Positions 29,565-62,734 of a DNA stretch of 64,000 nt are shown piece after piece. Location: positions 5,059 to 69,058 of the forward strand of contig CAYVQU010000006.1 in the NCBI GenBank assembly GCA_964453155.1, written 5' to 3'. Every line of letters starts with the position of its first letter. Position 1 is the first letter of the stretch. This DNA comes from an uncultured Anaerolineales bacterium (GTDB lineage: Bacteria > Chloroflexota > Anaerolineae > Anaerolineales > UBA11858). The notes below the pieces were generated by a model. That model was not told the origin of the DNA. It did no database searches and saw nothing but the letters and a program-made list of their open reading frames with translations. The translations under genes were made by a program, and so were the position numbers.

Positions 29565-29599
29565 TTTTGGAAAAAAACATAAACTAGAAGGAGGTTCCT

Positions 29600-31479: not shown

Positions 31480-31557
31480 TGATCCGACTGGTAACCAATA
31501 TTGGAATTACAGGTCTTGAAATAAATCATCAACAAAATCAAAATAGGAGAGAGACCT

Positions 31558-33561: not shown

Positions 33562-33570
33562 GAGGAAAAA

Positions 33571-34038
33571 ATGAGTGAAAAATTTGAACCCGTAATCGTT
33601 GGTTTCCTGTGCAACTGGTGTTCTTACCGTGCCGCCGACCTGGCCGGTACGGCCCGCATCAAATACGCCCCCAACATGCGCCCCATCCGGGTGATGTGCA
33701 GCGGCCGTGTCGATGCCCAGTTTGTTCTCAAAGCCTTGCGCGAAGGCGCGGATGGCGTTTTGGTGGCCGGTTGTCACCCGGGCGAATGCCACTACGTTAA
33801 TGGCAATATCAAAGCCCTGCGCCGCTTCTATCTGCTCAAGAAAATGCTCAAGCAACTGGGGGTTGAAGAAGAACGCGTGCAACTGGTATGGGCCTCAGCA
33901 TCTGAGGGCATCATCCTGGCCAACAAAGTCGACGAGATGACCGAAGAAATTCGAGCCTTAGGCCCATTGAACTGGAGCGAATCGGTTTTGGGTGGCAATG
34001 GCCATCACGAAGCTGTTCCAGTCCCCGAGGAGGTTTAA
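33571..34038 (+). CDS. mvhD: Methyl-viologen-reducing hydrogenase delta subunit (MvhD)-like
   Basis: VGFLCNWCSYRAADLAG...VMCSGRVD...VAGCHPGECHY. Confidence 0.85.
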   Translation: MSEKFEPVIVGFLCNWCSYRAADLAGTARIKYAPNMRPIRVMCSGRVDAQFVLKALREGADGVLVAGCHPGECHYVNGNIKALRRFYLLKKMLKQLGVEEERVQLVWASASEGIILANKVDEMTEEIRALGPLNWSESVLGGNGHHEAVPVPEEV

Positions 34039-34039
34039 T

Positions 34040-35056
34040 ATGTCTGAAAAACCGAAACTAGCAATGTACTGGGCCGCCTCCTGCGGTGGTTGTGAAATCT
34101 CCGTCCTGAATATCCACGAACATATCCTGACCGTCGATTCGGTCTTCGACATCGCCTTCTTCCCCTGCATCGCGGACTTCAAAGTCCATCATGTCGAGGG
34201 CTACGAAGATGGTTATATCGATGTCTGTTTGTGGAACGGGGCCATTCGCAACTCGGAAGGCGAGCACATGGCCAAACTGCTGCGCCAGAAATCCAAGGTC
34301 ATGGTGGCCTATGGATCCTGCGCCTACGAGGGCTGTATCCCCGCCCTCTCGAATCTAACATCCAAAGATGCGACCTTCAACACCGTCTATGGTGAGAATC
34401 ACTCCCTGGATAACTCCGAAGGTGTGGTCCCCCTGACCGCGGTGGACGTCGCCGAAGGCACCCTGACCCTGCCCGAGTTCTACCACACGGTGAAATCGCT
34501 AGATCAAGTCGTGGATGTGGACTATTACCTGCCCGGTTGTCCACCCGAACCGCCCCAAATCTGGGCAGTTCTCCAGGTTGTGGTGGCCGGACTTTTAGAG
34601 GGCGCGCCGCTCCCACCGGCTGGCTCCATCGTTGGGGCTGCCAACGTGGCCGTCTGCGAAGAATGCGAACGGACCAAGAGCGAGAAAGCCATCGAACGCT
34701 TCTACCGCCCTTACGAAATTACCCCTGATCCCGAGCAATGCTTACTTGAACAAGGCCTGATCTGCATGGGCCTGGCAACCCGCGGTGGCTGCGGCGCTCT
34801 GTGCCCGCAAGCCAATATGGGCTGCCGCGGCTGTTATGGACCGCTGCCCGGCGTCGAAGATCAGGGCGCCAAGATGCTCTCGGCCGTCGCCTCCGTGATC
34901 GAGGCTGGTGATACGACCATGGAAGATGATGAGTTGGAAGAGAAAATCAACGCCGTCATCGACACTATCGCCGACCCCGCGGGGACTTTCTACCGCTTCA
35001 GTATGGCCCACTCCCTGCTCCGTCGAGCCAAAGTTAATGGAAACGGGAAAGGATAA
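34040..35056 (+). CDS. mvhG: [NiFe] hydrogenase small subunit (MvhG-like, group 3c-like)
   Basis: MSEKPKLAMYWAASCGGCEISVLN plus C-terminal Cys clusters. ATG at 34040 with an AGGAGG RBS. ORF-track start at 33992 rejected. Confidence 0.85.
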   Translation: MSEKPKLAMYWAASCGGCEISVLNIHEHILTVDSVFDIAFFPCIADFKVHHVEGYEDGYIDVCLWNGAIRNSEGEHMAKLLRQKSKVMVAYGSCAYEGCIPALSNLTSKDATFNTVYGENHSLDNSEGVVPLTAVDVAEGTLTLPEFYHTVKSLDQVVDVDYYLPGCPPEPPQIWAVLQVVVAGLLEGAPLPPAGSIVGAANVAVCEECERTKSEKAIERFYRPYEITPDPEQCLLEQGLICMGLATRGGCGALCPQANMGCRGCYGPLPGVEDQGAKMLSAVASVIEAGDTTMEDDELEEKINAVIDTIADPAGTFYRFSMAHSLLRRAKVNGNGKG

Positions 35057-35061
35057 ATACA

Positions 35062-36552
35062 ATGAAAAGAATCACAATTGATCCCATCACCCGCCTGGAA
35101 GGTCATGGCAAGATCGAAATTTTCCTCGACGATGATGGAAACGTCGAAAATGCTTACCTCCAAATCCCCGAGCTGCGTGGTTTTGAGCAATTCTCCGTCG
35201 GCCGCCCTGCGGAAGAGATGCCCCGGATCACCAACCGCATCTGCGGCGTCTGCCCGGAAGCCCACCACATGGCCGGGACCAAGGCGCTAGATGCCCTCTT
35301 CCACGTTGATCCCCCCTCGGTGACCAAGAAGATCCGTGAGATGTTCTACAACTCGTTCTACTGCACTGACCATGCCGTCCACTTCTACGCCCTCGGCGGC
35401 CCTGACTTCGTCATTGGCCCCGATGGACCTCCCGCTGAACGCAACATTCTCGGCGTGATCCATAAAGTTGGCGTTGATGTTGGGAAGCAGGTCATTCAAC
35501 ACCGCAAACGCAACCACGAAGTCATCCAGTGGTTGGGCGGGCGCGGCATTCACCCCGTCGCCGGGCTCCCTGGCGGCTGGAGTGTGCCCTGCACCGAAGA
35601 ACTCCGCAAAGAAATCGAGGCGATTGCTCGCCAAAACATCGATTTCGCAGAGTTCAGCCTACAAGTTTTTGCCGACATCGTGCTGGCCAATCAGGCCTAT
35701 GTTGACCTGATCGTCTCCGACACTTTCTCCCACTCAACTTACTCGATGGGGACCGTGGACGAGAACAATTTCGTCAACTTCTATGACGGCAAGATCCGCG
35801 TTGTGGACCCCGAAGGCGGCGAATTTGCCAAGTACGATGCCAAGGACTACGCCGATCACGTCGCTGAGCGCGTTGAACCCTGGTCGTACCTCAAGTTCCC
35901 CTATCTCAAGAATGTCGGTTGGAAAGGCTTCACCGACGGCATGGACAGTGGCGTGTATACTGCCACTCCGCTCTCCCGCCTGAATGCAGCCGACGGTATG
36001 GCCACCCCCAAAGCTCAAGAGCACTACGAGCAGATGTACGAGACCCTGGGCGCCGAGAAAGTCGATGGGAAATACAAACCCGTCCACATGCGCTTGGCCA
36101 CCCACTGGGCCCGCCTGATCGAAATGCTCTACGCCGCCGAGCGGATGCTCGAACTGGCCACCGACCCCGAGATCACCGATCCCAACGTGCGCGCCCCGAT
36201 CACCGAGACGCCCACCGATGGTGTTGGCTGCGTGGAAGCCCCCCGTGGGACTCTCACGCACCACTACACCACCGATGAGAACGGGATCCTGACCAAGGTC
36301 AACCTGATCGTCGGTACCACCAACAACAACGCCCCCATGGCGATGTCGATCAAAAAGGCTGCTCAGGGCCTGATCACCAAGGGCACCGAAGTGACCGAAG
36401 GTCTGCTCAACACCGTTGAAATGGCTTTCCGCAACTACGACCCCTGCATGTCCTGTGCAACCCACTCCCTACCCGGCCAGATGCCGCTCGAAATCACGAT
36501 CCGTGATAAAGAGGGTAATGAGCTGAGTAGAGGCAGTCAGTACACCGACTAA
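35062..36552 (+). CDS. mvhA: [NiFe] hydrogenase large subunit (MvhA-like, group 3c-like)
   Basis: RLEGHGKIEIF; L1 motif is RICGVCPEAHH; C-terminal motif is DPCMSCATH, followed by a 27-aa extension that a maturation protease would cleave. Confidence 0.9.
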   Translation: MKRITIDPITRLEGHGKIEIFLDDDGNVENAYLQIPELRGFEQFSVGRPAEEMPRITNRICGVCPEAHHMAGTKALDALFHVDPPSVTKKIREMFYNSFYCTDHAVHFYALGGPDFVIGPDGPPAERNILGVIHKVGVDVGKQVIQHRKRNHEVIQWLGGRGIHPVAGLPGGWSVPCTEELRKEIEAIARQNIDFAEFSLQVFADIVLANQAYVDLIVSDTFSHSTYSMGTVDENNFVNFYDGKIRVVDPEGGEFAKYDAKDYADHVAERVEPWSYLKFPYLKNVGWKGFTDGMDSGVYTATPLSRLNAADGMATPKAQEHYEQMYETLGAEKVDGKYKPVHMRLATHWARLIEMLYAAERMLELATDPEITDPNVRAPITETPTDGVGCVEAPRGTLTHHYTTDENGILTKVNLIVGTTNNNAPMAMSIKKAAQGLITKGTEVTEGLLNTVEMAFRNYDPCMSCATHSLPGQMPLEITIRDKEGNELSRGSQYTD

Positions 36553-36662
36553 GTGTTTGGCGGTTTGAAGCTGACCTCAAAGTCAGCATGAACTACCACC
36601 AACCCTAAGCAGATTTCGGTTTGAACGAGGCTTTAAGGGCCAAAGTTTTTTCCGAAATCTGC
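36551..36662 (+). repeat. Dual-hairpin element family 1, copy A
   Basis: (T)AAGTGTTTGGCGGTTTGAAG..ACCACCAACCCTAAGCAGATTTCGGTTTGAAC..TTTCCGAAATCTGC. Starts at the mvhA stop codon. Hairpin 2 is 11 bp perfect. Confidence 0.85.
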
Positions 36663-36685
36663 GTCCTAAGGGACAGAAAGACCAC

Positions 36686-36728
36686 AACCGAGTGCTGGGT
36701 GGGACCACTCATCACTCGGTTTTTTTTG
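36686..36728 (+). terminator. Intrinsic terminator after mvhA and repeat copy A
   Basis: AACCGAGTG ... CACTCGGTT followed by TTTTTTTT. Confidence 0.8.
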
Positions 36729-36733
36729 TCTAT

Positions 36734-36750
36734 TGTTATAAGATAACAAG
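36734..36750. promoter_or_regulatory. 17-bp palindrome upstream of the hydrogenase protease gene
   Basis: TTGTTAT-AAG-ATAACAA, 64 nt upstream of the ATG at 36814. Confidence 0.4.
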
Positions 36751-36813
36751 AAGCCTGGAGCAATTTTCATGGCTTCCTTATAGAAAATTTACGATTCATC
36801 GAGATTTCAATTA

Positions 36814-37305
36814 ATGGAAAAAATTATTGTTATTGGTTTAGGTAACCCCATTCTGACAGATGATGGTGTTGGAGTGAAGGTCGCCTATGAAGTTGAGAAA
36901 GCATTGGGGGATAAAATCCCGGAGAATGTGACGATCACCGAGGCCAGTGTTGGCGGACTGCGGTTGATGGAATTACTGGAAGGTTATGACCGGGTCATTT
37001 TGATTGATGCCCTGCTAACAGACAATGATTGTCCTCCCGGAACAATCCACCTGATGTCATTGGAAGATTTGCAGAATATCAGCCACACCCAACATAGTGC
37101 TTCCGCTCATGATACCTCCTTGGTGACTGCACTGGAAGCGGGGGTAGAAATTGGACTGCATCTCCCGAAGGAATTTTCCATCTACGCGGTGGATGTGGAG
37201 AATATCCTGGATTTCAGCAATGATCCCACTCCCGGAGTGGCTGCGGCAATTCCCAAAGTCACTGAAATGGTTTTAGCTGAATTGACCGAACTCACCCAAG
37301 TTTGA
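36814..37305 (+). CDS. Hydrogenase maturation endopeptidase (HycI/HoxW/FrhD family)
   Basis: IIVIGLGNPILTDDGVGVKVA ... ILIDAL ... HTQHSASAHD. Confidence 0.85.
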   Translation: MEKIIVIGLGNPILTDDGVGVKVAYEVEKALGDKIPENVTITEASVGGLRLMELLEGYDRVILIDALLTDNDCPPGTIHLMSLEDLQNISHTQHSASAHDTSLVTALEAGVEIGLHLPKEFSIYAVDVENILDFSNDPTPGVAAAIPKVTEMVLAELTELTQV

Positions 37306-37335
37306 GCTCTCCAAGCGTTTAAATTGCCCGAAAAG

Positions 37336-37380
37336 TTGATTTTGACTGGCAACATTCGCTATAATGGTATTAGCGAATGT
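37336..37380 (+). promoter_or_regulatory. Promoter (TTGATT-18-TATAAT) overlapped by a 10-bp inverted repeat upstream of the cNMP-domain gene pair
   Basis: TTGATT at 37336-37341 and TATAAT at 37360-37365. ACATTCGCTA (37352-37361) and TAGCGAATGT (37371-37380) are the repeat arms. Confidence 0.5.
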
Positions 37381-37472
37381 CAATTGAGCTGTTAATTTTC
37401 TGTCATAACGCGAATTGATCACTGAAAACTGAATACCTCGCTGCTGATCCAGTGGTCGCCCGAGGAGGTGCC

Positions 37473-37958
37473 ATGTTCTCTTCCGAGAAACTACAGCAAA
37501 TTCCTTATTTTTCAAAATTGAATGAGGAGCAAGTTGAATGTTTGCTGGGGGCTTCCTTGCTGCGCACTGCGAACCGCGGCGAATTTTTATTTCACCGCGG
37601 AGATTTTCTCCACCATTTTTATCTGGTCGAAACAGGGGAATTCGAAATTATTTTTGAATCGCCAAAACTTTCAGTTGAATATGAAAGCCACGGTCAACCG
37701 AGTCAACTTGAGACCGAACAGGTGAGGTTATCTCGAGTCGCACCCGGGCAAATTATGGGCTGGTCGGGATTGGTGCCACCACACCAGGCCACTTCAGGGG
37801 GCAGGGCGCTCCAAACCAGCAAAATAATCGCGTTTGACTGTCAAAAATTGCTCCAATATTTTGAGCAAGACTGCAATTTTGGCTTCCTAATGATGCAAAC
37901 AGCTGCTCTCGTAATTGGGCTGCGGCTCCAGGATATTTATAAAGGCGGTGCCGAATGA
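37473..37958 (+). CDS. cNMP-binding-domain-only protein (no HTH), paralog 1
   Basis: IPYFSKLNEEQVECLL...GEFLFHRGD...FYLVETGEFEI is the cNMP beta-barrel. The phosphate-binding cassette is replaced by GQIMGWSGLVPPHQATSG. ATG at 37473 with a GAGGAGG RBS. Confidence 0.75.
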   Translation: MFSSEKLQQIPYFSKLNEEQVECLLGASLLRTANRGEFLFHRGDFLHHFYLVETGEFEIIFESPKLSVEYESHGQPSQLETEQVRLSRVAPGQIMGWSGLVPPHQATSGGRALQTSKIIAFDCQKLLQYFEQDCNFGFLMMQTAALVIGLRLQDIYKGGAE

Positions 37959-38404
37959 TTACGCCCGAACTGATCAATCGCTATCCTTTTTTCGCAGACC
38001 TAGAACTCCATCAACTCGAGGCCTTGGCTCGAGTTGCAGAGGGGATTACGGCTGAAACCGGAGAAATGATCTTCAAAGAGGGGACTGAACTGCGGTATTT
38101 CTACATTGTGGTGGAAGGTGCGGTGGGGATTGTGCTCGAAAAAGAGGGGAAACCAGATACGGTCATCAGCGCAGTCGGACCCGGGCATGTCTTTGCCTGG
38201 TCAGCGTTGGTCCCACCCCATCTAGCAACTGCCAGTGCCAAAGCATTAACCCCGTGTTGGTTAATCACGTTTGACCGTAAAAAACTCATCCATGAATTCC
38301 AGAAAGACTGCCGCTTTGGCTACCGGATGATGGAAAAAATCGTCCAAATCAGTCGTGACCGGCTGTTGGATGCCCGGTTGGAGTCGCTGGTTTTCATGGC
38401 GTAA
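37955..38404 (+). CDS. cNMP-binding-domain-only protein (no HTH), paralog 2
   Basis: YPFFADLELHQLEAL...GEMIFKEGT...FYIVVEGAVGI with GHVFAWSALVPPHLATAS. Overlaps paralog 1 by 4 nt (ATGA). Confidence 0.75.
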   Translation: MITPELINRYPFFADLELHQLEALARVAEGITAETGEMIFKEGTELRYFYIVVEGAVGIVLEKEGKPDTVISAVGPGHVFAWSALVPPHLATASAKALTPCWLITFDRKKLIHEFQKDCRFGYRMMEKIVQISRDRLLDARLESLVFMA

Positions 38405-38633
38405 CTTCAAACCGCATCATTTGAATGTGGGTTAATCTAACCAAATTTGGTAATCCTCGGTTCTCTAATGAATGGGGATTAAATGACATGATCTATAAAA
38501 AATTCAGAAGGGTGGCATTTGTTTCTGTTTAAACACGAGAAATGAAAATTTTTTTCCGAAAAAACCATCAAACTCAATAACTAGTTCAGTTTTCGCAATC
38601 AATCAGGCTTCCCAATTGAATACTAATGACATT

Positions 38634-38656
38634 TATCGTCATGAATTATGACGATA
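38634..38656. promoter_or_regulatory. 9-bp-arm inverted repeat in the AT-rich region upstream of the cyt b operon
   Basis: TATCGTCAT-GAATT-ATGACGATA. A further ATGAC half-site lies just upstream (38627-38631). Confidence 0.4.
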
Positions 38657-38724
38657 TTTTATTGGAATTAGAATATCATTAAATTGAATAAATAGTTTTT
38701 GTTTCTGCTTTTAGGAGCGTTTTT

Positions 38725-39741
38725 ATGAAAAATCTCCCCCGCCGAATAATTATTATCGGCATATTTTTCGTCATTTTGGCGGCCTGGGCCGGATTCACAT
38801 CGCGACAGGTTACCGCCAGCGAAAAACCACTACCACCCGATCACCCGGAATGGGCTGCGGCAGATTTAACCACAGACACCCTGGAATCCGCCGTTGCGCT
38901 CCCAGCCGCAGCACTACCCCCTCCCGCGAAACAAGATCCCTGTCTGCACTGCCACATCAAAGGGGAAGAAACCGGCATGTGGACGCCCCTGGCCCGGTGG
39001 GTGGTTTTCCTAACCATGGTGGGTGTTTTTGGGTTTGGCATTCTCCGCACATCCAGTGCCTTCCGCAAACGGATGCCGTGGAAACCGATTCCAGAACGAG
39101 TCGGTGATTGGTTAGAAGAACGGCTCCAATATAAAGAACCCCTATCCAAGGTTTTGGATAAACCTGTCCCCGAGTGGCAGCGGCGGTGGTGGTACTGTTT
39201 GGGCGGTCTGACATTTTTCTTCTTCGTCGTTCAAGGGATTACGGGAATTATGTTGGCGTTCTACTATAAACCTACGCCCGAAGCCGCCTATGCCAGCATT
39301 CAGTTCATCGAAACTCAGGTTTATTTTGGCCGGGCTATCCGCATGATCCATCACTGGTCGGCGAATGGGATGGTTTTGATGTGTTTTGCCCATATGCTGC
39401 GAGTGTTCATCACGGGAGCTTACAAAAATCCCCGCGAACTTAACTGGGTAACCGGTGTGACACTGTTTGTGATGACATTGGCCTTTGGCTTTACCGGCTA
39501 CCTGCTCCCTTGGGATCAACGGGCCTATTGGGCCACCACTGTCGGCTCAGAAATTGCAGGTGGAATTCCAGTGATCGGCAATCTGGCCCTGGTCTTCCTG
39601 CGAGTTGGTTGGGATATCACTGCCCTGACCCTGAGTCGGTTTTATGCCCTCCATGTCCTGATCATCCCACTGATCACCGTAGCCATGATGGGGGCTCATT
39701 TCATCATGATCCGACGACAAGGAATTATGAAACCGCTATAA
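38725..39741 (+). CDS. Cytochrome b6-type subunit of a Rieske/cyt b complex with N-terminal TM anchor and CxxCH heme-c motif
   Basis: CLHCH at codons 73-77 (38941-38955) lies between two TM helices. The cyt b core is RWWYCLGG, IRMIHHWSANGM, FAHMLRVF, GYLLPWDQ, FYALHVLIIP. Confidence 0.85.
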   Translation: MKNLPRRIIIIGIFFVILAAWAGFTSRQVTASEKPLPPDHPEWAAADLTTDTLESAVALPAAALPPPAKQDPCLHCHIKGEETGMWTPLARWVVFLTMVGVFGFGILRTSSAFRKRMPWKPIPERVGDWLEERLQYKEPLSKVLDKPVPEWQRRWWYCLGGLTFFFFVVQGITGIMLAFYYKPTPEAAYASIQFIETQVYFGRAIRMIHHWSANGMVLMCFAHMLRVFITGAYKNPRELNWVTGVTLFVMTLAFGFTGYLLPWDQRAYWATTVGSEIAGGIPVIGNLALVFLRVGWDITALTLSRFYALHVLIIPLITVAMMGAHFIMIRRQGIMKPL

Positions 39742-39805
39742 AGGTGGCTGGATAATTAGATACCCGTTATCTGGTAACTATTCACCTACTCCGCAGGAGT
39801 TTTCT

Positions 39806-40210
39806 ATGACTGAAGAAAAATCACATTTAGACGAACGCACGGTCCCCTTCTGGCCCGATCACCTGCTCTATGAGGCCAAAGTGGCACTGTGGTTTGGGAT
39901 TGGATTGATCATTATCGGTATCGTAGGGTTGTTTATCCCGGTAGGCTTAGGTGATCCTGCTGATCCAATAGTTACGCCCGAACACACCAAGCCGGAGTGG
40001 TATTTTCTGGCATTGTTCCAATTATTAAAGTATTTACCTAAAACGATTGGAGCGGTCTTACCCGTCTTATTGGTCTTATTGGTGACGTTTTGGCCGTTTT
40101 TGGATAACAAACAGGACCGATCCAAGCTGACTACACGCAACCGATTAATCGCTACGGCGGTAATGGTAGTCATAATCATTATTTTGACAATTCTTGGGGA
40201 GGTGACCTGA
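39806..40210 (+). CDS. Cytochrome b C-terminal domain / subunit IV (PetD-like)
   Basis: TPEHTKPEWYFLALFQLLKYLP contains the PEWY Qo motif. 134 aa, 3 TM. Confidence 0.85.
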   Translation: MTEEKSHLDERTVPFWPDHLLYEAKVALWFGIGLIIIGIVGLFIPVGLGDPADPIVTPEHTKPEWYFLALFQLLKYLPKTIGAVLPVLLVLLVTFWPFLDNKQDRSKLTTRNRLIATAVMVVIIIILTILGEVT

Positions 40211-40653
40211 TGGCTAAAAAATTCACCCGCCGCGAATTCTTGAAACTCACTAATCGGATTTTAGCCGCGACTGGTCTAACAGCCCTCCTCGGTCCCGTAG
40301 TAGCCTACTTTTATCCCCCTAATTTGGAGGAAACGCCCTCCGATCCAGTTTTGGTCGCCCCAGAAAACGAGTTAGCGGTGGGAGAAAGCAAAACCGTAAA
40401 ATTTGGGCGCTATCCAGCCATCGTAATCAATACTGACGGGGGCCTAAAAGCATATTCGGCGGTTTGCACGCACTTTGCCTGCATCGTGATGTGGGAACCG
40501 GAGGAAAATTGGATCGCCTGTCCTTGTCACGCTGGATTTTTTAATGTGGATAATGGATCAGTCATCTCCGGTCCCCCTCCGACGGGACTGGCTCATCTCG
40601 AAACCGAAATCGTTGACGGCAATATTTATGTGAAAGCGGGAGGTGAGGCGTGA
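40210..40653 (+). CDS. Rieske [2Fe-2S] protein with Tat signal
   Basis: FTRREFLKL, CTHFACIV and CPCHAGFF boxes. The start overlaps the subunit IV stop. Confidence 0.9.
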   Translation: MAKKFTRREFLKLTNRILAATGLTALLGPVVAYFYPPNLEETPSDPVLVAPENELAVGESKTVKFGRYPAIVINTDGGLKAYSAVCTHFACIVMWEPEENWIACPCHAGFFNVDNGSVISGPPPTGLAHLETEIVDGNIYVKAGGEA

Positions 40654-42560
40654 GTGAGAATAGTGGGAAGTGGATAGTGGGCAGTGGGAAGTGGGCGGTT
40701 GATTGGGCTGTGATTTGGGACAATATCAAGGAACTGGTGATTCACGCGGTTGGGCAGGTGCGGATTTGGAAGAATATATATGGGGGGATCATGCACTTCC
40801 TGATTTTCTGGGGAGTCCTGATTCAGGTCGTGGGTACGGCGATCAATATCCAACAGATGGCGCTATTTACCCCCTGGGCACTCACCTGGCCCCGAGAAAG
40901 CTTTTACCTGACGTATGAATTTTTGATGGATTTGGCCGGGGTTTTCATCCTGGTGGGGATCATCATGGCGTTTGTGCGCCGGTTGATCACCAAACCAACA
41001 CATTTGGGATCAAAATGGGATGATTATTACGTCCTGACGATGTTTTTGCTGATCGCTATCGCCGGATTCTTCAATGAATCAATGCGTCTGATATCGGTCA
41101 ATCCCCAGTGGCGAGAAATATCATTCTTTGGCAATCTAGTCGCCAGTGGGCTGGAGGGCATGGGGGTTACGCAGCAAGTCGCGTTCCGCCTGCAGCCTGT
41201 CTTTTTATTCCTTCACATGGGATTGGCTATCACCCTGACGATCAGCCTGCCCTTCACCAAACTGCGCCATTTGGTGATGACTCCGTGGAACATCATCCGC
41301 CGCCCGCGCCGAGAGATGGGCGCCCTGGAAAAAATTGAAGATATCGAAGAGACCGAGATTTTGGGCCGCACCCAAATCAATGAATTTGCCCCTCAACAAT
41401 TACTCTCTTTCGAAGCCTGTCTTGACTGTGGGCGCTGCGAGGAAGTCTGTCCAGCCACGATGGCCGGGATGAATTATTCCCCGCGAACGCTGATCCAGTC
41501 GTTACGCGGTTTTTTCGCCGAGGAACTGATCCAACCCAATGGTAATGGACATAAAGAACTTAATGCCGACTCAGTTGGGGAAGATTTATGGGGCTGCACG
41601 ACTTGTGGGGCCTGCCTGACCCGCTGCCCAGCCTTGATCAACCCGCCGGAGCAAGTCGTTGAGTTACGTCGGGCACAAGTCTTGATGACAGGCCAAATGT
41701 CCAAGCAGGTTGGCGATACCCTGCGAAACTTCGAACGGCAGGGCAATCCGTGGGGAATGCCGCCGGAAAACCGGTTAGCATGGGCGGAGGGAATGAATGT
41801 CCGCGAGCTGGCTCCTGGTGACGAGGTCGATGTACTCCTGTATATTGGCTGCGCGGGCGCCTACGATGACCGCAACAAAAATGTCACCCAATCTTTCGTG
41901 CGGCTGCTCCAAAAAGCGGCGGTTGATTTTGGGGTTTTGGGTTTCGATGAGATGTGCTGCGGCGAAACGGCCCGACGGATGGGACACGAATATATTTTCC
42001 AGGTCTTTGCTGAGCAAAACATTGAAATATTTGAATCCGTCAAATTCAATCGAATCGTCACCCAATGTCCGCACTGCTTTAACACGCTGAAGAATGAGTA
42101 TCCCCAGATGGGAGGCGAGTATGAAGTGCTGCACTACGCCGAGTTTTTGAATGATTTGAGAGCAAACGGAAATTTAGGGGAGTGGGGACAGGGGAGCAAG
42201 GAGGCCGGGGAAAAACTAGCCTACCACGATTCGTGTTACTTGGGTCGGTATAATAATCTCTTCGAGGCCCCGCGGGAATTGTTAGATGCCGCCGGAGCAA
42301 ATCGGACTGAATTTAAACGACACGGTGAGAATAGTTTTTGCTGCGGAGCTGGGGGCGGTGGGATGTGGATTGAGGTCGATCCGGACACTCGCATCAACCA
42401 GAACCGGTTGGAGCAAGCTTTGGCGGCCAAGGCAAAAACCGTTGCGACCGCCTGTCCATACTGCCTGATCATGTTTGATGACGCGGTACGATCAAAGGGT
42501 GTTGGGGAGGAGATTCAGATACTGGATATCGCCGAAGTTTTAGAAAGGCACTTAGACTGA
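40650..42560 (+). CDS. Membrane HdrDE/DsrMK-like fusion (NarI-like heme-b TM domain, 2x[4Fe-4S], 2 CCG), paralog of 24404..26446
   Basis: IMHFLIFWG, LFLHMGLAI, CLDCGRCEEVCP, CTTCGACLTRCP, MCCGETA, DSCYLGRY, FCCGAGGGG. The GTG start has a GGGAGGTGA RBS and overlaps the Rieske stop (GTGA). Confidence 0.8.
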   Translation: MSENSGKWIVGSGKWAVDWAVIWDNIKELVIHAVGQVRIWKNIYGGIMHFLIFWGVLIQVVGTAINIQQMALFTPWALTWPRESFYLTYEFLMDLAGVFILVGIIMAFVRRLITKPTHLGSKWDDYYVLTMFLLIAIAGFFNESMRLISVNPQWREISFFGNLVASGLEGMGVTQQVAFRLQPVFLFLHMGLAITLTISLPFTKLRHLVMTPWNIIRRPRREMGALEKIEDIEETEILGRTQINEFAPQQLLSFEACLDCGRCEEVCPATMAGMNYSPRTLIQSLRGFFAEELIQPNGNGHKELNADSVGEDLWGCTTCGACLTRCPALINPPEQVVELRRAQVLMTGQMSKQVGDTLRNFERQGNPWGMPPENRLAWAEGMNVRELAPGDEVDVLLYIGCAGAYDDRNKNVTQSFVRLLQKAAVDFGVLGFDEMCCGETARRMGHEYIFQVFAEQNIEIFESVKFNRIVTQCPHCFNTLKNEYPQMGGEYEVLHYAEFLNDLRANGNLGEWGQGSKEAGEKLAYHDSCYLGRYNNLFEAPRELLDAAGANRTEFKRHGENSFCCGAGGGGMWIEVDPDTRINQNRLEQALAAKAKTVATACPYCLIMFDDAVRSKGVGEEIQILDIAEVLERHLD

Positions 42561-42583
42561 GTGTTTGGCAACCACAAATATTT

Positions 42584-42617
42584 CTCCCGAAGGTATTAAG
42601 CCTTCGGGAGTTTTTTT
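42584..42617 (+). terminator. Intrinsic terminator after the HdrDE-like gene
   Basis: CTCCCGAAGG-TATTAAG-CCTTCGGGAG followed by TTTTTTT. Confidence 0.9.
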
Positions 42618-42662
42618 AGACGAAGATATTCCGCACATTGTTGAAAAAAGTGTGAGTACCCC

Positions 42663-42760
42663 AGACCCCAGGGGTTTTCAAAAACAACATTACACCCCCA
42701 AGCTGTGATGCTATTGACAGATTTCGATCATAGAGTGTTCCCCGGAAACCCCTGGGGTCT
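42663..42760. repeat. Terminal-inverted-repeat (TIR) element family 2, copy E1 (98 bp)
   Basis: AGACCCCAGGGGTTT (42663-42677) and AAACCCCTGGGGTCT (42746-42760) form a perfect 15-bp inverted repeat. The left interior ACAACATT resembles copy E2. Confidence 0.75.
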
Positions 42761-42789
42761 CCGATTTTACACTGTAATAATAATCAAAC

Positions 42790-43125
42790 TTATGAAAACA
42801 CCTGATCGTCAAAATAATATCCCCGGCCACGACAATTTTTCACATATCTGGGATTGGCAGGATCCGGCTCGATTTTCCGGCGCAGACGAGCAATATTGAT
42901 GCGTAATAATTCAGGATAATCATACCCAGACCCCCAAACTGCGGCCAATAATTCATCATTCGATATGGGTTTCCCAGGCCTTTCAAGTAAACGCCCCAAC
43001 AAGCGGAACTCAGTCGGCGTTAGTTTAGATTCTTTCCCAACGATCGTTACAGTCTGATTTTTCACATCTACCAAGACTGCGCTCATCATTGGAATATTGT
43101 GTTGCATTTCTGACACATTCATCAT
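42790..43125 (-). CDS. Stand-alone OmpR/PhoB-type winged-helix DNA-binding protein (no receiver domain)
   Basis: LTPTEFRLLGRLLERPGKPISNDELLAAVWG...INIARLRRKIE...VKNCRGRGYYF. ATG at 43125 is preceded by AGGAGG; the ORF-track start is 43170. Confidence 0.75.
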   Translation of the reverse strand: MMNVSEMQHNIPMMSAVLVDVKNQTVTIVGKESKLTPTEFRLLGRLLERPGKPISNDELLAAVWGSGYDYPELLRINIARLRRKIEPDPANPRYVKNCRGRGYYFDDQVFS

Positions 43126-43450
43126 GGTATCCCTCCTAAAACTACTATTTGGCAACATTGAAATCGTCATTTTTCTCCTATCTAAAAGTATCTCATCGAT
43201 AAGACCAATATTAGACTGGTTATTCAGTTGAGCAATATTTTTTTAAAGAATCATACGAACCATATGGGATCAAAAAAAACAGTGATGAGGCTAAAAGGGT
43301 CATTCGCAACTAGGGCGCGCGAACAACCCCGTTCTACCTTACCATTTTTAATTTTGGCATATATTGGGTTCGATTGAAATACGTAAAATTACGGTATTGG
43401 GGGATTGGTTCGTTTGTTGGATAGTTGGTTGGTTACGACGAACGGTGGGA

Positions 43451-44107
43451 CTATTTCATTCCCGGCGGTTGAATCCCTCTTTCAATAGCAAACCGCACCA
43501 ATTCGGCAGTAGATCTGAACCGCAGCTTCTTCATCAGATTAGCCCGGTGCATTTCTACAGTTCGGGGACTAAGCGAGAGACGTTGCGCAATCTGCCGGTT
43601 GGTCAGGCCTTCAGTAACCAAATATAAGATCTGTTGCTCGCGGAAAGTTAGGGTCTTCTGGCGCGCGGACGAATCTTTGATTGCTAATTGTTGATAGTTT
43701 TCAAGTAGATTTTCCGATAGAGGCGGGCTGAGATATTTTCGTCCTTGCAGAACAGCATTTATGGCTGCAATTAAATCTGAGGAGGCTGAGCGTTTTAGCA
43801 CATAGGCTTGGGCTCCTGCCTGAAGGGCCTCGGCCACATAGGCTTCTGTAGCGTGCATAGACAGGATGATCACTTGGGTCCGCACAGCCGCGCGTTGAAT
43901 CTGGCGGGCAATTTCCAAACCGCCGATTCCCGGAAGCACCAAATCAAGTATGATGAGCGCGGGTTCATATTTTTTAACTAGGGGCAAGACGGCCAAACCG
44001 TCTCCGGTTTCAGCGATTATTTCCAAAGCAGGTTGGGCACTAATCACCCCCCTAAGACCATCCCTAACGATGGGATGGTCATCTGCCAAAATGATTTTAA
44101 CGCTCAT
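43451..44107 (-). CDS. NarL/LuxR-family response regulator
   Basis: MSVKIILADDHPIVRDGL..LIILDLVLPG is the REC domain; LTFREQQILYLVTEGLTNRQIAQRLSLSPRTVEMH is the LuxR HTH. The internal ATG at 44107 overlaps the kinase stop. Confidence 0.9.
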   Translation of the reverse strand: MSVKIILADDHPIVRDGLRGVISAQPALEIIAETGDGLAVLPLVKKYEPALIILDLVLPGIGGLEIARQIQRAAVRTQVIILSMHATEAYVAEALQAGAQAYVLKRSASSDLIAAINAVLQGRKYLSPPLSENLLENYQQLAIKDSSARQKTLTFREQQILYLVTEGLTNRQIAQRLSLSPRTVEMHRANLMKKLRFRSTAELVRFAIERGIQPPGMK

Positions 44108-46589
44108 AATCGTTTTCATCTCCGAGAACATCAATTGGCAGGGTAGCCATAATCGTGGTGCCATCACCCGGGGATGATCCGATTTCAAATTGGCCACCCA
44201 ACCAAGTAACCCGCTCACGCATTCCTATAATGCCCCCCGCAGTCGTACTCTGGAGTACGGCTTCATGATCAAATCCTACGCCGCGATCCTCGATTTGAAT
44301 ATGGGTTTGTCGATCAGCCACCCAGAGCTGCACCGCCACTTGATCTACTTTGGCATGGCGAGCAACATTTGTGAGGGCTTCTTGAACAATCCGGTAGGCT
44401 GCAATTTCAACTGCAGGAGAAAAGCGTTGATTCAAATTACGATGATCAAAATCAACCTGGATTTTCATGCGTTCCGCATACCGCTGGAAATGCCAGTTCA
44501 AGGTTGGTAATAACCCTAAATCGTCCAGTAATGTGGGTCTCAAATCCAGAGAAAGTTCATGCACCTTATCCAGCAATTCGATTGCGATTTCTTGGGCATT
44601 CCGAATAGATTGGGCCAGCAATGAAGGCTGATTCAAACCAGTATCCAAAAGCAAGTTGAGACCGGTGAGTTCTTGTCCAATTTCATCATGAAGTTCATGC
44701 GCAATGCGCCGTCTTTCGATCTCCTGGATCTCACCAATCCGCTGAGATAGTGCTTGGGCGCGTACCCGCATATCGTGTTCGGCTTTCTCGGCCCGTTTTC
44801 TTTGGGTAATTTCGGTAGCAATCCCCTCTACAATCAAGCTCTGATCTTCAGTACGGATTCCAAAAGAACGATCTCGGAACCAAAGCCATTTTCCTTGGGC
44901 ATTCTTGATACGGTACTCGATATCAAAATTTTCTCTATTCGCCACAAGCTCAATAACTTTGATAATTTTTTCTTGATCATCTGGATGAATACTCTGTTTC
45001 CACAACATCGGATTTTCGAGGAGATATTCGGGAGAATACCCTAAAATCGATTCGACCCCTTGGGAATAAAAAAGGCCTCCGGTTTGTAACGAAAAAGCAT
45101 AAACAATATCGGGCGCACCTTCAACCAGATTACGATAACGCTCCTCACTCACTTTGAGTCGTGATTCAATCTGAATCCGATCATCAATTTCGCTCCTGAG
45201 TTTGCGATTTAATTGGTCTAGTTTTTGGGTGCGTTCAACTACTAGCCCCTCTAGATGTTCGCGATACTGGTGTAACTCATCCTGAGTTTGTTTCAGTCTC
45301 GTAATATCTTGAACAAAGGCATAAGTCACAATTTCATCATTCAATTGCAATGTGGTAACCGTCACATCCATTGGGAATTCGGTTCCATCCCGCCGCAGCC
45401 CAGATATCCCGTATCGTGAGGGAACCTGCTCCCCACGTTCCCTGGTGAGATTATAATTGCGAACTTTTTCTCGACTTCCGGGGGGAAGGCGGTCGATTAA
45501 AGAAGTGCCTTTCATTTCATCGGGATGGTCAAAACCGAACATCTGCGCGCAAGCCCAATTGACATACAGATAAGTCCCGTCTTTTGAAACCGCCACAGCA
45601 GTGGGCGAATCATTAAATAAAGCTCGATATCGAGCTTCGCTCTCCCTTAGGGTGATCTCAACTCGCTTACATTCCAAAATCTCGCAATTGGCAGCTTCGT
45701 AAAGTTGGGCATTGCGGATCGCGATTGCGGCATGGTTGGCAAATAAACTCAACAGCTCAGCATTTTCAGGGGTGAATTTTCTCGGCGGATCCGCAAAAAC
45801 ATCCAAGACACCCAAAAAATCGGACCCTGAACATACCGGGACACCGACATCCGCCCGAGAGCCTAAATATTCCACCCAGTGTGGTAAATGACCTTCCCAG
45901 TTTGAATAATCAGAAATGATTAAAGGTTCGCCCGTTTCCCATATCTGACCACTGAAACCTTCACCGCGCTGAATATAAGTATTTTGCGGTACTGAGGCGA
46001 TACCCGCATAAATCGAATATTGGAGGCAATCCAGATCTGGCTGATAAAGGGCGATACCGCCCGCGGTCCCAGCCAGCAATTCAACTGCTTTTGAAACAAT
46101 CGACTGTAATAGTTTCTCTAGATCAAGCTCTGCCGCGATTTCTAAATTGATTGCCTGCAGTGCTGCTAATTTGGCAGTCTCCCGGGTTAAGGACTCTTCC
46201 GCGTTTTTTACCCGCAGTCCCGCCTGCACTCTGGCCTGTAACTCACGATTAGATACTGGCCGGGCGATGTAATCATCAGCCCCGGCTTCCAAACCGGCTG
46301 CCCGTTGCTCAGAAGTGATCTCTGCACCCGAATACAAAATGACGTAAATATCTTCCAATTCGAGATCCGACTTGATTTGCTTACAAACCTCAATCCCATG
46401 GCGATCCGGCAAGATGATGTCAAGGAGCACCAAATCAACCGGGATCGTCCGGGCTAACTCGATCGCTTCGGTTCCAGTTTCAGCACCGATACAGGTATAG
46501 CCGCCGCGGCCTAAGGTCTGCAAGGTCGCGGTGAGATTCTCGCGAGTATCATCGACTACTAGAATCTGAGGGTGATCAGGCGAGGTCAT
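44097..46589 (-). CDS. Hybrid sensor kinase REC-GAF-PAS(x2-3)-HisKA_3-HATPase
   Basis: ILVVDDTRENL..LVLLDIILPD is the REC domain. GAF and PAS segments follow. The H-box is HELHDEIGQELTG (NarX/LiaS type). RGVGF is present. ATG at 46589 preferred. Confidence 0.85.
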   Translation of the reverse strand: MTSPDHPQILVVDDTRENLTATLQTLGRGGYTCIGAETGTEAIELARTIPVDLVLLDIILPDRHGIEVCKQIKSDLELEDIYVILYSGAEITSEQRAAGLEAGADDYIARPVSNRELQARVQAGLRVKNAEESLTRETAKLAALQAINLEIAAELDLEKLLQSIVSKAVELLAGTAGGIALYQPDLDCLQYSIYAGIASVPQNTYIQRGEGFSGQIWETGEPLIISDYSNWEGHLPHWVEYLGSRADVGVPVCSGSDFLGVLDVFADPPRKFTPENAELLSLFANHAAIAIRNAQLYEAANCEILECKRVEITLRESEARYRALFNDSPTAVAVSKDGTYLYVNWACAQMFGFDHPDEMKGTSLIDRLPPGSREKVRNYNLTRERGEQVPSRYGISGLRRDGTEFPMDVTVTTLQLNDEIVTYAFVQDITRLKQTQDELHQYREHLEGLVVERTQKLDQLNRKLRSEIDDRIQIESRLKVSEERYRNLVEGAPDIVYAFSLQTGGLFYSQGVESILGYSPEYLLENPMLWKQSIHPDDQEKIIKVIELVANRENFDIEYRIKNAQGKWLWFRDRSFGIRTEDQSLIVEGIATEITQRKRAEKAEHDMRVRAQALSQRIGEIQEIERRRIAHELHDEIGQELTGLNLLLDTGLNQPSLLAQSIRNAQEIAIELLDKVHELSLDLRPTLLDDLGLLPTLNWHFQRYAERMKIQVDFDHRNLNQRFSPAVEIAAYRIVQEALTNVARHAKVDQVAVQLWVADRQTHIQIEDRGVGFDHEAVLQSTTAGGIIGMRERVTWLGGQFEIGSSPGDGTTIMATLPIDVLGDENDYER

Positions 46590-47199
46590 AATATCCCTTT
46601 CCGCCGCAGGTCTGGCATAAAACCTGTTCATTGATATGGATTTCACGTTCGTTCATAATTTCTTCTTTACAAGTCTCACAGATCACCCGCCGACCAGCGA
46701 CGCTAATTATTTCATTCATAGATGATTTCAAGCAAATGGGTTGTACCGCGAGCAATTCGGAAACCGGCATGACCTGATAACCTTCTAATTGAGCCTGGTA
46801 TCTGGTATTCGAATGCCAGGCATACGCCCAGGCTCGAGTGCGGACATCGGGTTTAGGAGCCAGCCGCAGCGCTTGATGGGTATCGGTATTCACAAATGTG
46901 GCCGCCACTTTGCCAAAATCGACGATGCGCAGTGTTCGGTGGCCGATGGTACAACCAGTCGCCACTTCCACCGCGTCCGCGAAACAACCATCGGTTTCAA
47001 CGATGACCATCAGGTGTCTCTCAAGATCAGAACCTGACAGGTTCAACAAAGCCAGGCCATACAACCCCATCCGCACCCCCAAAACCTGCCGCGGGCAAAG
47101 TTTAGTATGCCGAACAGCGGACCGGGCCAATAAGGTTGATAAGTTTGCCTCATCAGTCAAATCATTTTTTATGCTGAAATCTGATTGTAAAACAGTCAT
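46576..47199 (-). CDS. FmdE-family protein with C-terminal zinc ribbon
   Basis: LCPRQVLGVRMG...ETDGCFADAVEVATGCTIGHRTLRIVDFGKVAATF is the FmdE fold; CETC...CQTCGG is the ribbon. ATG at 47199 with a GGAGG RBS. Confidence 0.75.
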   Translation of the reverse strand: MTVLQSDFSIKNDLTDEANLSTLLARSAVRHTKLCPRQVLGVRMGLYGLALLNLSGSDLERHLMVIVETDGCFADAVEVATGCTIGHRTLRIVDFGKVAATFVNTDTHQALRLAPKPDVRTRAWAYAWHSNTRYQAQLEGYQVMPVSELLAVQPICLKSSMNEIISVAGRRVICETCKEEIMNEREIHINEQVLCQTCGGKGYYDLA

Positions 47200-47269
47200 T
47201 GCAGCCTCCAATTTTTCCGGATACTACGGTCCCCCAAATCCAGTTTCCGGGAAAATGGCTCAAATAAAT

Positions 47270-48181
47270 TTAGAATCCTTCCCGCCGATAAAATCCATAA
47301 AAAAGATACCGACCTAACACTTCCGAAACTACAATCAACCCAAACCCCAAAATAATAATGAGCAAACTTAACTCCAAACCCAACGACCCGATCAAAATGC
47401 CGGCGCCACTCCATAACGTCAAAAATCGCCCCGCCAGTATTGGGCGTAAACCTGTCCACACTAATCGACTGCTTTCAGCCGCAATACCACGCTGACCTTT
47501 CAAGCTCAGGATTGTTATGAGATAGATTCCCGTTTGGATCCCTGCCAATATAATGATCAGCATTATCGAAACCTGAAATACATCTGGTGGCATCATATTC
47601 ACTGCATAAATTTCATCCCAAAATATCGACCCCGTCTGAATTCCAGTCGTCAGTACTAGGCCTAACAAAAATGTGGTGGTAAAGAAAGTGCCTGGCGTAC
47701 CCCAATTGTTCCAGGCTGGAACCGTGCGGAGCATATATAATTTCGAGATGACCGCGACCAAACCTAAACCGCTGGTCATACCTAAAAGGATCAAGACCCC
47801 ATCGAAGATGGAGAATTCAGCGCCATAAAATTGACGCAATAGCAAGCAAAAATTCACGATTCCAAAAAATCCCCCGAACAAGGCTTCGCGGCTTAACCAG
47901 GATGTCCGAACATTGGTAAATGAAAACCGAGCATTTAGCGGACGCCCTAAGTGCATTCCGGCAGACCCGGTTCCTAAAACCAAACAAGTCAGTGCAATCG
48001 TAAAAAAAACCTGGAGATAACCTGGCCCAGCAAAAGAGTACCAACCTGGAAACAACAAAATTGCCAATCCCCCACTGACAAAAATCCCCACCGACATCTG
48101 GGTCAAAATCGTAAAGAACACCAACTGCCACTCATGACGGATGCGCCCATTAGGATGGTTGGTGCCACCGCGTGCAACCAT
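47270..48181 (-). CDS. DmsC-like membrane anchor subunit
   Basis: HEWQLVFFTILTQMSVGIF followed by about 8 TM helices. Start is 1 nt after the dmsB-like stop. Confidence 0.7.
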   Translation of the reverse strand: MVARGGTNHPNGRIRHEWQLVFFTILTQMSVGIFVSGGLAILLFPGWYSFAGPGYLQVFFTIALTCLVLGTGSAGMHLGRPLNARFSFTNVRTSWLSREALFGGFFGIVNFCLLLRQFYGAEFSIFDGVLILLGMTSGLGLVAVISKLYMLRTVPAWNNWGTPGTFFTTTFLLGLVLTTGIQTGSIFWDEIYAVNMMPPDVFQVSIMLIIILAGIQTGIYLITILSLKGQRGIAAESSRLVWTGLRPILAGRFLTLWSGAGILIGSLGLELSLLIIILGFGLIVVSEVLGRYLFYGFYRREGF

Positions 48182-48182
48182 C

Positions 48183-48803: not shown

Positions 48804-48838
48804 AATAAGTGGAAAATGGTTAAAAATATTTCTGATAG

Positions 48839-48903
48839 AGACCCCAGGGGTTTTACAACGTTCAGGTCCATCTGCTTGCGACCTTTGCAAACCCCTGGGG
48901 TCT
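48839..48903. repeat. TIR element family 2, copy E2 (65 bp)
   Basis: It has the same 15-bp termini, AGACCCCAGGGGTTT and AAACCCCTGGGGTCT. It fills most of the dmsA-like/dmsB-like intercistronic gap. Confidence 0.75.
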
Positions 48904-48906
48904 GGC

Positions 48907-62673: not shown

Positions 62674-62704
62674 CGAAACACCTCCGACGCGAACCAACCA
62701 GAAA

Positions 62705-62734
62705 CAAAAAATCGCCCTCACAGTGAAGGGCGAT
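62705..62734 (-). terminator. Terminator-like hairpin 30-60 nt upstream of the FGE/WD40 gene start
   Basis: The minus strand reads ATCGCCCT-TCACTGTG-AGGGCGAT followed by TTTTTT. Confidence 0.55.

Follow-up and report, generated by a model that had tools for sequence, protein, structure and literature searches.

An EtfD-like gene is conserved as the fourth cistron of a Rieske/cytochrome b6 operon in uncultured Anaerolineae

Four adjacent genes in the genome of an uncultured Anaerolineales bacterium (GenBank assembly GCA_964453155.1, contig CAYVQU010000006.1, positions 5,059 to 69,058; these 64,000 nucleotides are hereafter called the window) encode a cytochrome b6, a subunit IV, a Rieske protein carrying a Tat signal and a 636-aa protein with the features of the EtfD/EMO family. 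The four-gene arrangement recurs far beyond chance, and is a conserved unit in a clade of uncultured Anaerolineae. The genes are inherited and translated as one unit, and the operon is solidly real at the genomic level. Its products may work as one integrated membrane-bound electron-transfer module, in which a donor in the cytoplasm would pass electrons, by way of menaquinone and haems, to a c-haem in the periplasm. This is the preferred reading, to which we give somewhat less than an even chance.

According to the list of open reading frames (ORFs), the plus strand carries the genes for cytochrome b6 (38725-39741, 338 aa), subunit IV (39806-40210, 134 aa), the Rieske protein (40210-40653, 147 aa) and the fourth protein (40650-42560, 636 aa, GTG start). 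By direct reading of the junctions, the Rieske start overlaps the stop of subunit IV (TGATG at 40208-40212), and the GTG start of the fourth gene overlaps the Rieske stop (GTGA at 40650-40653). Shine-Dalgarno sequences of the GGAGG type are found upstream of both overlapping starts. An intrinsic terminator on the same strand (42584-42610), featuring an 11-bp stem with 7 G-C pairs and a T7 tail, closes the operon. A translationally coupled operon of four genes with overlapping starts and stops, ending at a terminator at 42584, had been proposed in an earlier reading of the DNA letters (hereafter the sequence-only reading), and is confirmed by ORFs, domains and junctions. All the motifs named there, PEWY, CTHFAC/CPCH, two copies of CxxCxxCxxxCP, MCCGETA, DSCYLGRY and FCCGAGGGG, were found again at their positions; CLHCH and WYCLGG (haem ci Cys) are present as well.

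Homologues of the 636-aa protein are numerous at 57–86% identity, and the named ones come from metagenome-assembled genomes (MAGs) of Anaerolineales/Chloroflexota. Contig look-ups revealed the same four genes at 58% identity (locus L002) and at 86% identity (a JGI contig), as well as a variant operon in locus L001, where identity to the 636-aa protein is 64%. The survey for petB-petD-Rieske-hdrDE-like synteny which the sequence-only reading had called for was carried out in two directions. GTDB species representatives were scanned with an alignment of 12 orthologues, and the 80 loci returned were screened by tblastn with the window proteins. Orthologues with at least 50% identity were found in 53 loci, all from Anaerolineae/Chloroflexota MAGs. 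Cytochrome b6, subunit IV and Rieske genes are located immediately upstream, on the same strand, in 48 of these loci; three carry a reduced variant, and two are cut by the contig end. The four genes thus occur together in 48/51 orthologue loci (at least 51% identity) when the two contig-end loci are left out. Relatives at 33–40% identity occupy the remaining 27 loci: a single Anaerolineae MAG contributes one, and Bacillota, Desulfobacterota, Myxococcota, Binatota and others contribute 26. Rieske or cytochrome b genes are found in none of these loci, and etfAB lie alongside in many. In the reciprocal scan, metagenome contigs were searched with a cytochrome b6 alignment, which gave 80 loci at 58–77% identity. 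Subunit IV, Rieske and fourth genes were found in all the loci having enough downstream DNA (55/55). The Rieske gene overlaps the fourth by 4 nt, either ATGA or GTGA, in the window, in 46 intact genome loci and in 53/55 metagenome loci, about 100 in total. Synteny is conserved in both directions in >100 Anaerolineae loci, and is therefore not private to this genome; a restriction to this genome would have told against the sequence-only reading. Chance or an assembly artefact is excluded, as order and overlaps are repeated in >100 independent contigs.

The products of the first three genes have the features of a b6-type, menaquinol-oxidising Rieske/cytochrome b complex with predicted haems bp, bn and ci. 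The Pfam model PF00033 (Cytochrome_B, E=4.7e-52) covers only residues 145-333 of cytochrome b6, which include the predicted b-haem ligands H209 or H210, H223, H310 and H325, and the putative haem ci ligand Cys158 in the WYCLGG motif. The N-terminal extension consists of two transmembrane (TM) helices flanking a CxxCH motif (C73/C76/H77), and is covered by no Pfam or NCBIfam model. The CxxCH motif, the ci Cys and the four b-haem His are each conserved in 48/48 four-gene orthologues, where CxxCH and the ci Cys are separated by a constant distance of 83 aa; the N-terminal CxxCH marks 52/52 full-length cytochrome b sequences. The extension is predicted to hold a single c-haem on the outer side of the membrane. 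The operon contains no gene for a distinct cytochrome c, the lone CxxCH being that of the cytochrome b6 extension. Subunit IV matches PF00032 (Cytochrom_B_C, E=8.6e-15), and the PEWY Qo motif is found in 50/50 orthologues. The Rieske protein matches PF00355 (E=4e-13) and the Tat signal model TIGR01409, and carries the Tat motif RREFLK. Its cluster-binding boxes read CTHFAC...CPCHAGFF in the window and CTHF[AG]C...CPCH in 50/50 orthologues. High-potential Rieske proteins, as those of bc1 and b6f complexes, have Ser and Tyr residues following the CPCH box. In the window protein the residues A-G-F-F follow, and the absence of Ser and Tyr fits a low-potential cluster of the menaquinol type. The curated NCBIfam models for this part all score below cut-off (ExtP, 267 vs 290; cytochrome b6, 261 vs 325).

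The operon shares the split of cytochrome b6 and subunit IV, the four b-haem His, the ci Cys, the PEWY motif and a Tat-exported Rieske protein with CTHxxC and CPCH boxes with the cyanobacterial/plastid b6f complexes, Bacillus QcrABC and heliobacterial PetABCD. In the known b6-type complexes the c-haem is carried by cytochrome f, by a domain fused C-terminally to subunit IV (Bacillus), or by a separate dihaem protein. In contrast, the operon has a single CxxCH at the N-terminus of cytochrome b6, and the additional EtfD-like gene. No other bc or b6f complex is known to us with a c-haem placed between two extra N-terminal helices of cytochrome b6.

The fourth protein had been viewed in the sequence-only reading as an HdrDE/DsrMK-like fusion. 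The haem-b/FeS/CCG architecture stands, but the family is that of EtfD/EMO. Pfam and NCBIfam models recognise a Nitrate_red_gam domain over residues 70-219, and also a 4Fe-4S dicluster and a pair of CCG stretches (E=1.8e-32). The best PDB match obtained by phmmer is M. smegmatis EtfD (9OJN, E=1e-103), and spans both the membrane and the soluble parts. The same structure heads the Foldseek matches (E=1e-25; LutA, HdrB and, weakly, NarI come after it) of an AlphaFold2 (AF2) model built from a 12-sequence alignment; this model has a pLDDT of 63, and of <50 in the FeS linker, and was used only for counting TM helices and matching the fold. The DsrK model NF045796 scores 40.3 bits vs a cut-off of 400, TmcB 48 vs 735 and QmoC 45 vs 300. 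The HmcF, DsrK, TmcB and QmoC models are an order of magnitude under their cut-offs, the HdrB model also far under. No dsr, apr or qmo genes were seen among the annotated ORFs of the window. Membership in the DsrMK, Hme, Tmc or Qmo families was rejected on account of these scores and of the lack of a dsr context. True orthology to HdrDE is unsupported for a bacterial fused chain with an EtfD-type His.

All 79 sequences compared share three His in the haem-b domain, H49, H189 and H207, and the spacing of 18 residues between H189 and H207 is that found between H233 and H251 in the EMO of Syntrophus aciditrophicus (SaEMO). In SaEMO, H87 and H251 ligate haem bP, H233 binds the first member (bD1) of a stacked distal twin-haem, and the three haem His are conserved across EMO-like proteins (10.64898/2026.08.18.745454). 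The eight predicted cubane [4Fe-4S] ligands (C257, C260, C263, C267, C316, C319, C322, C326) are likewise invariant across the 79 sequences. Residues C401, C436, C437, C473, H475 and C476, and C529, C564, C565, C602 and C605, are the putative ligands of the CCG-type, non-cubane clusters. C473-P-H475-C476 is aligned with C581-P-H583-C584 in M. smegmatis EtfD (MsEtfD), and H475 is found in 79/79 sequences. His583 in the MsEtfD C581-P-H-C584 motif ligates the non-cubane D2 cluster (PMC13083937), and H534 in SaEMO occupies the site where HdrB binds coenzyme M (CoM) (10.64898/2026.08.18.745454). The genuine HdrB of the window (CSAC and CPLC) and archaeal HdrB (CNGC) have no His at the position equivalent to H475. 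Because of the 9OJN match, the low DsrK score, the three EMO-type His and the invariant His of the CPHC motif, the fourth protein is assigned to the EtfD/EMO family as a single chain predicted to hold a NarI-like haem-b domain, two cubane and two non-cubane sites.

Members of the Rieske-linked clade can be told apart from other sequences of the family by several features. All ten CCG Cys of the HDR type are present in the window protein; nine are conserved in 47/47 clade members, C476 in 40/47. The first CCG stretch (CCG1) is complete in the clade, as C401, C436, C437 and C473 are found in 47/47 sequences, and C476 gives way only to Gly, as it does in SaEMO, in the seven sequences which lack it. 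CCG1 residues are mostly replaced in the Etf-linked outgroup and in the paralog present in the window itself. The MsEtfD D1 cluster is a linear [3Fe-4S], because the second Cys of the CCG motif is replaced by Thr, and the D1 cysteines are entirely absent in homologues of the FadF/DgcB type (PMC13083937). The absence of TM helix I is another mark of the clade: no hydrophobic segment precedes the helix containing H49 in 51/51 members, and one is present in 28/28 outgroup sequences. The AF2 model features four long helices (residues 43-71, 84-113, 122-150 and 175-202). As the helices are four and the C-terminal domain is cytoplasmic, the chain should also begin in the cytoplasm. H49 and H207 would then be located at the inner side of the membrane and H189 on the opposite one, in keeping with haems bP and bD. 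Residues M70, F73, P75, E90, M93 and D94, at the P side, are invariant in the Rieske-linked clade only. The etf genes are not adjacent to the fourth gene in four-gene loci, barring occasional neighbouring Etf clusters. A second EtfD-like paralog (31–41% identity) or etfA is located just upstream of cytochrome b6 in loci L017, L032, L035, L038, L042, L074, L127, L128 and L132, and Etf-linked and Rieske-linked copies are often neighbours in several genomes.

EtfD of M. smegmatis (9OJN) and M. tuberculosis (Rv0338c) and the EMO of S. aciditrophicus are likewise single chains made by NarI-like haem-b, HdrC-like cubane and HdrB-like CCG/non-cubane regions, and feature the same three haem His, the last two 18 residues apart, and the same His of the C-P-H-C motif at the non-cubane cluster. 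They have five TM helices and a periplasmic N-terminus, whereas the fourth protein has four TM helices and an N-terminus predicted inside. EtfD and EMO are partnered by etfAB; the fourth protein is the fourth cistron of a Rieske/cytochrome b6 operon, not beside etfAB, and its partner is probably an FrhB-like protein or Hdr/Mvh rather than ETF. The fourth protein retains the 'supernumerary' Cys of the CCG motif (C437), so that two complete non-cubane sites are predicted, unlike the linear [3Fe-4S] of MsEtfD and the [4Fe-5S] of SaEMO. Methanosarcina HdrDE, as judged from the description of HdrD, also combines a haem-b anchor, two cubanes and ten CCG Cys, and connects a quinone-like carrier to the cytoplasm. 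However, HdrDE is made by separate HdrD and HdrE subunits, resides in methanogens and methanotrophs and works with methanophenazine, whereas the fourth protein is a fused bacterial chain with EtfD-type His and no methanogenesis context. The heterodisulfide CoM-S-S-CoB is an unlikely substrate, to judge from these features. DsrMK(JOP), HmeCD, TmcBC and QmoC of sulfate reducers also join, at the membrane, a NarI-like haem-b protein to an FeS protein resembling HdrD or HdrC, but as two subunits; the fourth protein is fused, and gives only weak matches to the corresponding NCBIfam models. Rieske/cytochrome b complexes with additional subunits are known in anammox bacteria. Those of Kuenenia, which include NAD(P)H-oxidoreductase and HAO-like subunits, follow the same concept, a core joined to a flavo/FeS module facing the cytoplasm. 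The same holds for a gene cluster for Rnf and Rieske/cytochrome b in Ca. Acetothermum autotrophicum (PMC3267732). In contrast to the anammox and Acetothermum modules, the module added in the operon is an EtfD/HdrDE-like protein with haem b and non-cubane clusters.

In 31 genome loci (37 by tblastn) and ~30 metagenome loci, a fifth gene coding for 319–395 aa is located at most ~100 nt downstream of the fourth (L002:9963-10994; L001:9927-10922). It is limited to the Rieske-linked clade, and encodes a divergent flavo-FeS protein of the FrhB/FdhB type, with a C-terminal 2x[4Fe-4S] motif and a weak match to FrhB_FdhB_C. The best solved relatives are beta subunits of F420-dependent formate dehydrogenases (9T1S_M, E=7e-16; 7BKB_E, E=9e-12). 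No curated NCBIfam model reached its cut-off with either the FrhB-like protein or the cytochrome b of the reduced variants. A tblastn search for the FrhB-like gene across the window gave only noise due to FeS motifs, and its presence elsewhere in the window was ruled out. Upstream of the operon, the window carries a cluster identified by Pfam as HdrC-HdrB-HdrA-MvhD-MvhG-MvhA-HycI (30035-37305, plus strand). The same cluster immediately precedes the four-gene unit in ~12 loci of the genome scan and ~10 of the metagenome scan. The fifth gene alone is present in 21 loci, Mvh alone in 9, both in 2 and neither in 7, a near-exclusive distribution (Fisher p=0.003, phylogeny being ignored). From this gene order, Hdr/Mvh is a candidate cytoplasmic partner or donor in the lineage of the window. 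In L002 (1-3857, on a contig shared with L012) and in L138, a cluster of HdrA-like, MvhD(FlpD)-fusion, FeS and NAD-binding (DHODB-type) genes lies a few kb upstream, and resembles modules of the Flx-Hdr type. HdrA-type flavoproteins are thus found near the operon in more than one form, the DHODB-type cluster being seen in some loci which carry the FrhB-like gene.

In a few loci the operon is reduced. In L001, L006, L008 and L009 a single protein of 241–288 aa replaces the products of the three upstream genes, and the subunit IV and Rieske genes are absent (L001:7180-8004; L009:7274-7999; also L006 and L008). The protein is made by the TM-CxxCH-TM module, conserved in 4/4, and by a cytochrome b core. 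Helices B (3/4) and D (4/4) each keep the first of their two His, predicted to bind the P-side haem bp; the other His is lost from both, as is the Cys of haem ci, these being ligands of bn and ci. The distance between the variant gene and the EtfD-like gene is -4, +5, +5 and -8 nt in the four loci. The variant lineages, one with L001 and one with L006, L008 and L009, fall inside the subclade of the window, and seem to result from two separate reductions. The variant cytochrome b evolves fast, identity being 41% where that of the EtfD-like partner is 79%.

According to the preferred reading, the EtfD-like subunit would be the wire connecting the module to the cytoplasm. Electrons of a cytoplasmic flavo/FeS donor would enter at the non-cubane clusters, as they do from the FAD of ETF in EMO/EtfD, and would move to the cubane clusters and then to haem b. 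Haem b could deliver them to menaquinone, or straight to the P-side haems of cytochrome b6. Menaquinol would be re-oxidised at the adjacent Qo site: one electron would pass through the Rieske protein and the fused c-haem to a periplasmic acceptor, the other through bp, bn and ci in a Q cycle, and energy would be conserved. The FrhB/FdhB-like protein would be the donor in most genomes; in the lineage of the window, where the FrhB-like gene is missing, this role may be played by the upstream HdrABC-MvhADG hydrogenase, with H2 as the source of electrons. Having lost TM helix I, the EtfD-like subunit would offer an interface to cytochrome b6, which has gained two TM helices.

A physical complex appears somewhat more likely than mere co-expression, because of the loss and gain of helices, the reciprocal synteny, the 4-nt overlap and the Qo-less variants, in which a c-haem cytochrome b is still coupled to the EtfD-like gene. 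Two co-expressed but independent enzymes, a donor:menaquinone and a menaquinol:cytochrome c oxidoreductase linked only by the free menaquinone pool, are a doubtful alternative, though one that has to be taken seriously. EtfD and EMO were purified and are active as single proteins, and consecutive steps of a chain often share an operon with overlapping stop and start codons. Against pool coupling stand a synteny of 55/55 and 48/51 and an overlap kept in ~100 loci, the loss of TM helix I, unique to the Rieske-linked clade, and the variants lacking Qo, whose pairing with the EtfD-like gene is hard to explain if menaquinol oxidation at that site were the only link. Some points weigh against the integrated module. 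EtfD and EMO function as stand-alone enzymes, and the fast-evolving variant cytochrome b genes could be decaying rather than functional. The donor role of the FrhB-like protein or of Hdr/Mvh is drawn from gene order alone, the test of their mutual exclusivity ignores phylogenetic non-independence, and the AF2 model is of moderate quality.

A catalytic CCG site had been envisaged in the sequence-only reading: oxidation of quinol at Qo would be coupled to the redox chemistry of a cytoplasmic (hetero)disulfide or thiol carrier. This carrier may be one shared with HdrABC-MvhADG. CCG1 is indeed complete, as ten HDR-type Cys are kept (C401, C436, C437 and C473 in 47/47, C476 in 40/47) where Etf-linked relatives mostly lack CCG1, and complete HdrABC-MvhADG genes lie upstream here and in ~20 other loci. 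Catalysis is nevertheless improbable in our view. H475, present in 79/79 sequences, corresponds to His583, the D2 ligand in MsEtfD, and to H534, located in the CoM-binding site in SaEMO, and genuine HdrB proteins, the window copy included, have no His there (CSAC, CNGC). H475 would also speak against a free Fe site and an open cavity for the thiolates of CoM and CoB. C476 is replaced by Gly in 7/47 orthologues, as in the non-catalytic SaEMO; the DsrK and HdrB models are far under cut-offs, and the FrhB-like flavoprotein found as a partner in most genomes fits a transfer from flavin to cluster. An electron wire is favoured over a disulfide reductase because the EtfD-type His never varies, C476 is in some sequences a Gly, and a flavoprotein is usually encoded next door. 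Such a wire might also run in reverse, from a periplasmic donor through the c-haem, the haems and the FeS clusters and, driven by the proton-motive force, into the cytoplasm, where the FrhB-like protein would be the acceptor and would reduce F420, NAD(P)+ or ferredoxin. Known enzymes of the FrhB/FdhB family are reversible. The operation would be likened to reverse bc1 in lithotrophs or to SaEMO, for which a reverse redox loop driven by the proton-motive force is proposed (10.64898/2026.08.18.745454). However, neither the operon nor its surroundings encode a system for a periplasmic donor, the neighbouring genes in the window (Etf, Hdr/Mvh, the DmsABC-like reductase) are of fermentative or anaerobic-respiratory type, and no sequence feature fixes the direction of flow; we consider this the remotest of the readings.

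The region surrounding the operon in the window is a bioenergetic island. On the plus strand, an Etf cluster includes a soluble EtfD-family protein which lacks the membrane domain, keeps the family His (DPHA) and has lost CCG1 (21289-22623), EtfB (22645-23412), EtfA (23426-24379), and a FadF/EMO-type paralog of 680 aa with five TM helices, in which CCG1 is also lost (24404-26446). The cluster thus holds both a soluble and a membrane-bound EtfD-like partner. The sequence-only reading had placed a paralog of the fourth gene at the Etf cluster at 24.4 kb, and the two proteins are in fact homologous over the full length (32% identity, E=2e-105). Sensor kinases and regulators follow (26450-30025). 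Between hycI and cytochrome b6, two tandem overlapping genes on the plus strand (37452-38404) encode proteins of 168 and 149 aa made only of a cyclic nucleotide (cNMP)-binding domain (PF00027), with no DNA-binding domain; the same pair precedes cytochrome b6 in L084, and is partial in L011 and L001. The genes past the terminator lie on the minus strand. Directly after it, an ORF of 126 aa encodes an OmpR-type winged-helix (Trans_reg_C) protein with no receiver domain (42790-43170). Pfam matches identify next a NarL-type response regulator (43451-44218) and a hybrid PAS/GAF HisKA_3 kinase (44097-46646), and in ~24 genome loci the operon has a homologue of this response regulator beside it, in many cases together with a HisKA_3 kinase. 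DmsA/DmsB/DmsC-like molybdopterin oxidoreductase genes and a gene for an FmdE-domain protein (46576-51273) may specify a quinol-dependent terminal reductase; the same cluster follows the operon also on the JGI contig 86% identical. A protein of 935 aa with an FGE-sulfatase domain, like that of formylglycine-generating enzymes, and C-terminal WD40 repeats is encoded at 59914-62721, on the minus strand.

The cytochrome b6 gene is preceded by an AT-rich intergenic region of 320 nt (38405-38724, plus strand), which is a probable promoter/regulatory region. A perfect AT-rich palindrome of 10 bp, TATCGTCAT GAA TTATGACGATA, resides in this spacer at 38634-38656. It was scored as terminator-like by the scan, but could equally well be the binding site of a regulator. 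No match at E<=0.1 was obtained when 36500-43500, long spacer upstream of cytochrome b6 included, was searched with Rfam, and an RNA element in the spacer was ruled out on this basis. Eleven sigma-70 promoters were found by scanning vs 9.4 expected from shuffles, which is not above chance, and no promoter is claimed.

A full-text literature search gave no description of a Rieske/cytochrome b operon containing an EtfD/HdrDE-like gene, in agreement with the view of the sequence-only reading that the combination was undescribed. The EtfD/EMO papers (10.64898/2026.08.18.745454, PMC13083937), in the sections consulted, cover Etf-linked, HdrDE, TfrB, GlpC and related clades, and no Rieske-linked one; Hug et al. 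2013 mention no more than PetAB complexes, in another Chloroflexi genome. The combination of Rieske/cytochrome b6 and EtfD-like genes is probably a new kind of respiratory module. The further proposal of a new class of Rieske/cytochrome b supercomplexes, with the EtfD-like subunit docked on the c-haem cytochrome b6 as a built-in transmembrane wire to a cytoplasmic flavoenzyme or hydrogenase, is a rather unlikely one. If true, a low-potential cytoplasmic donor, possibly of the flavin-based bifurcating type, would be joined to Qo chemistry and to a periplasmic c-haem in one machine, and the reduced variants would move electrons across the membrane without any Qo site.

Rieske/cytochrome b and HdrDE/EtfD-like modules are among the most widespread building blocks of membrane bioenergetics. 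Their coupled inheritance would add a new way in which a Q-cycle complex is wired to the low-potential metabolism of the cytoplasm, based on H2 or on F420H2/NAD(P)H/ferredoxin. The Rieske-linked clade is a natural experiment for the newly solved EtfD/EMO fold, in which TM helix I is lost, the D1 site is complete and the partner is different, and the reduced variants are a test case for haem-to-haem transfer replacing a quinone step. All the orthologues retrieved in the genome scan derive from MAGs, which makes experiments harder. Sediments, aquifers and anaerobic digesters harbour abundant Anaerolineae, for which a fermentative metabolism is usually assumed in models. The presence of a conserved respiratory module near Hdr/Mvh, Etf and a DmsABC-type reductase alters the reconstruction of their energy metabolism.

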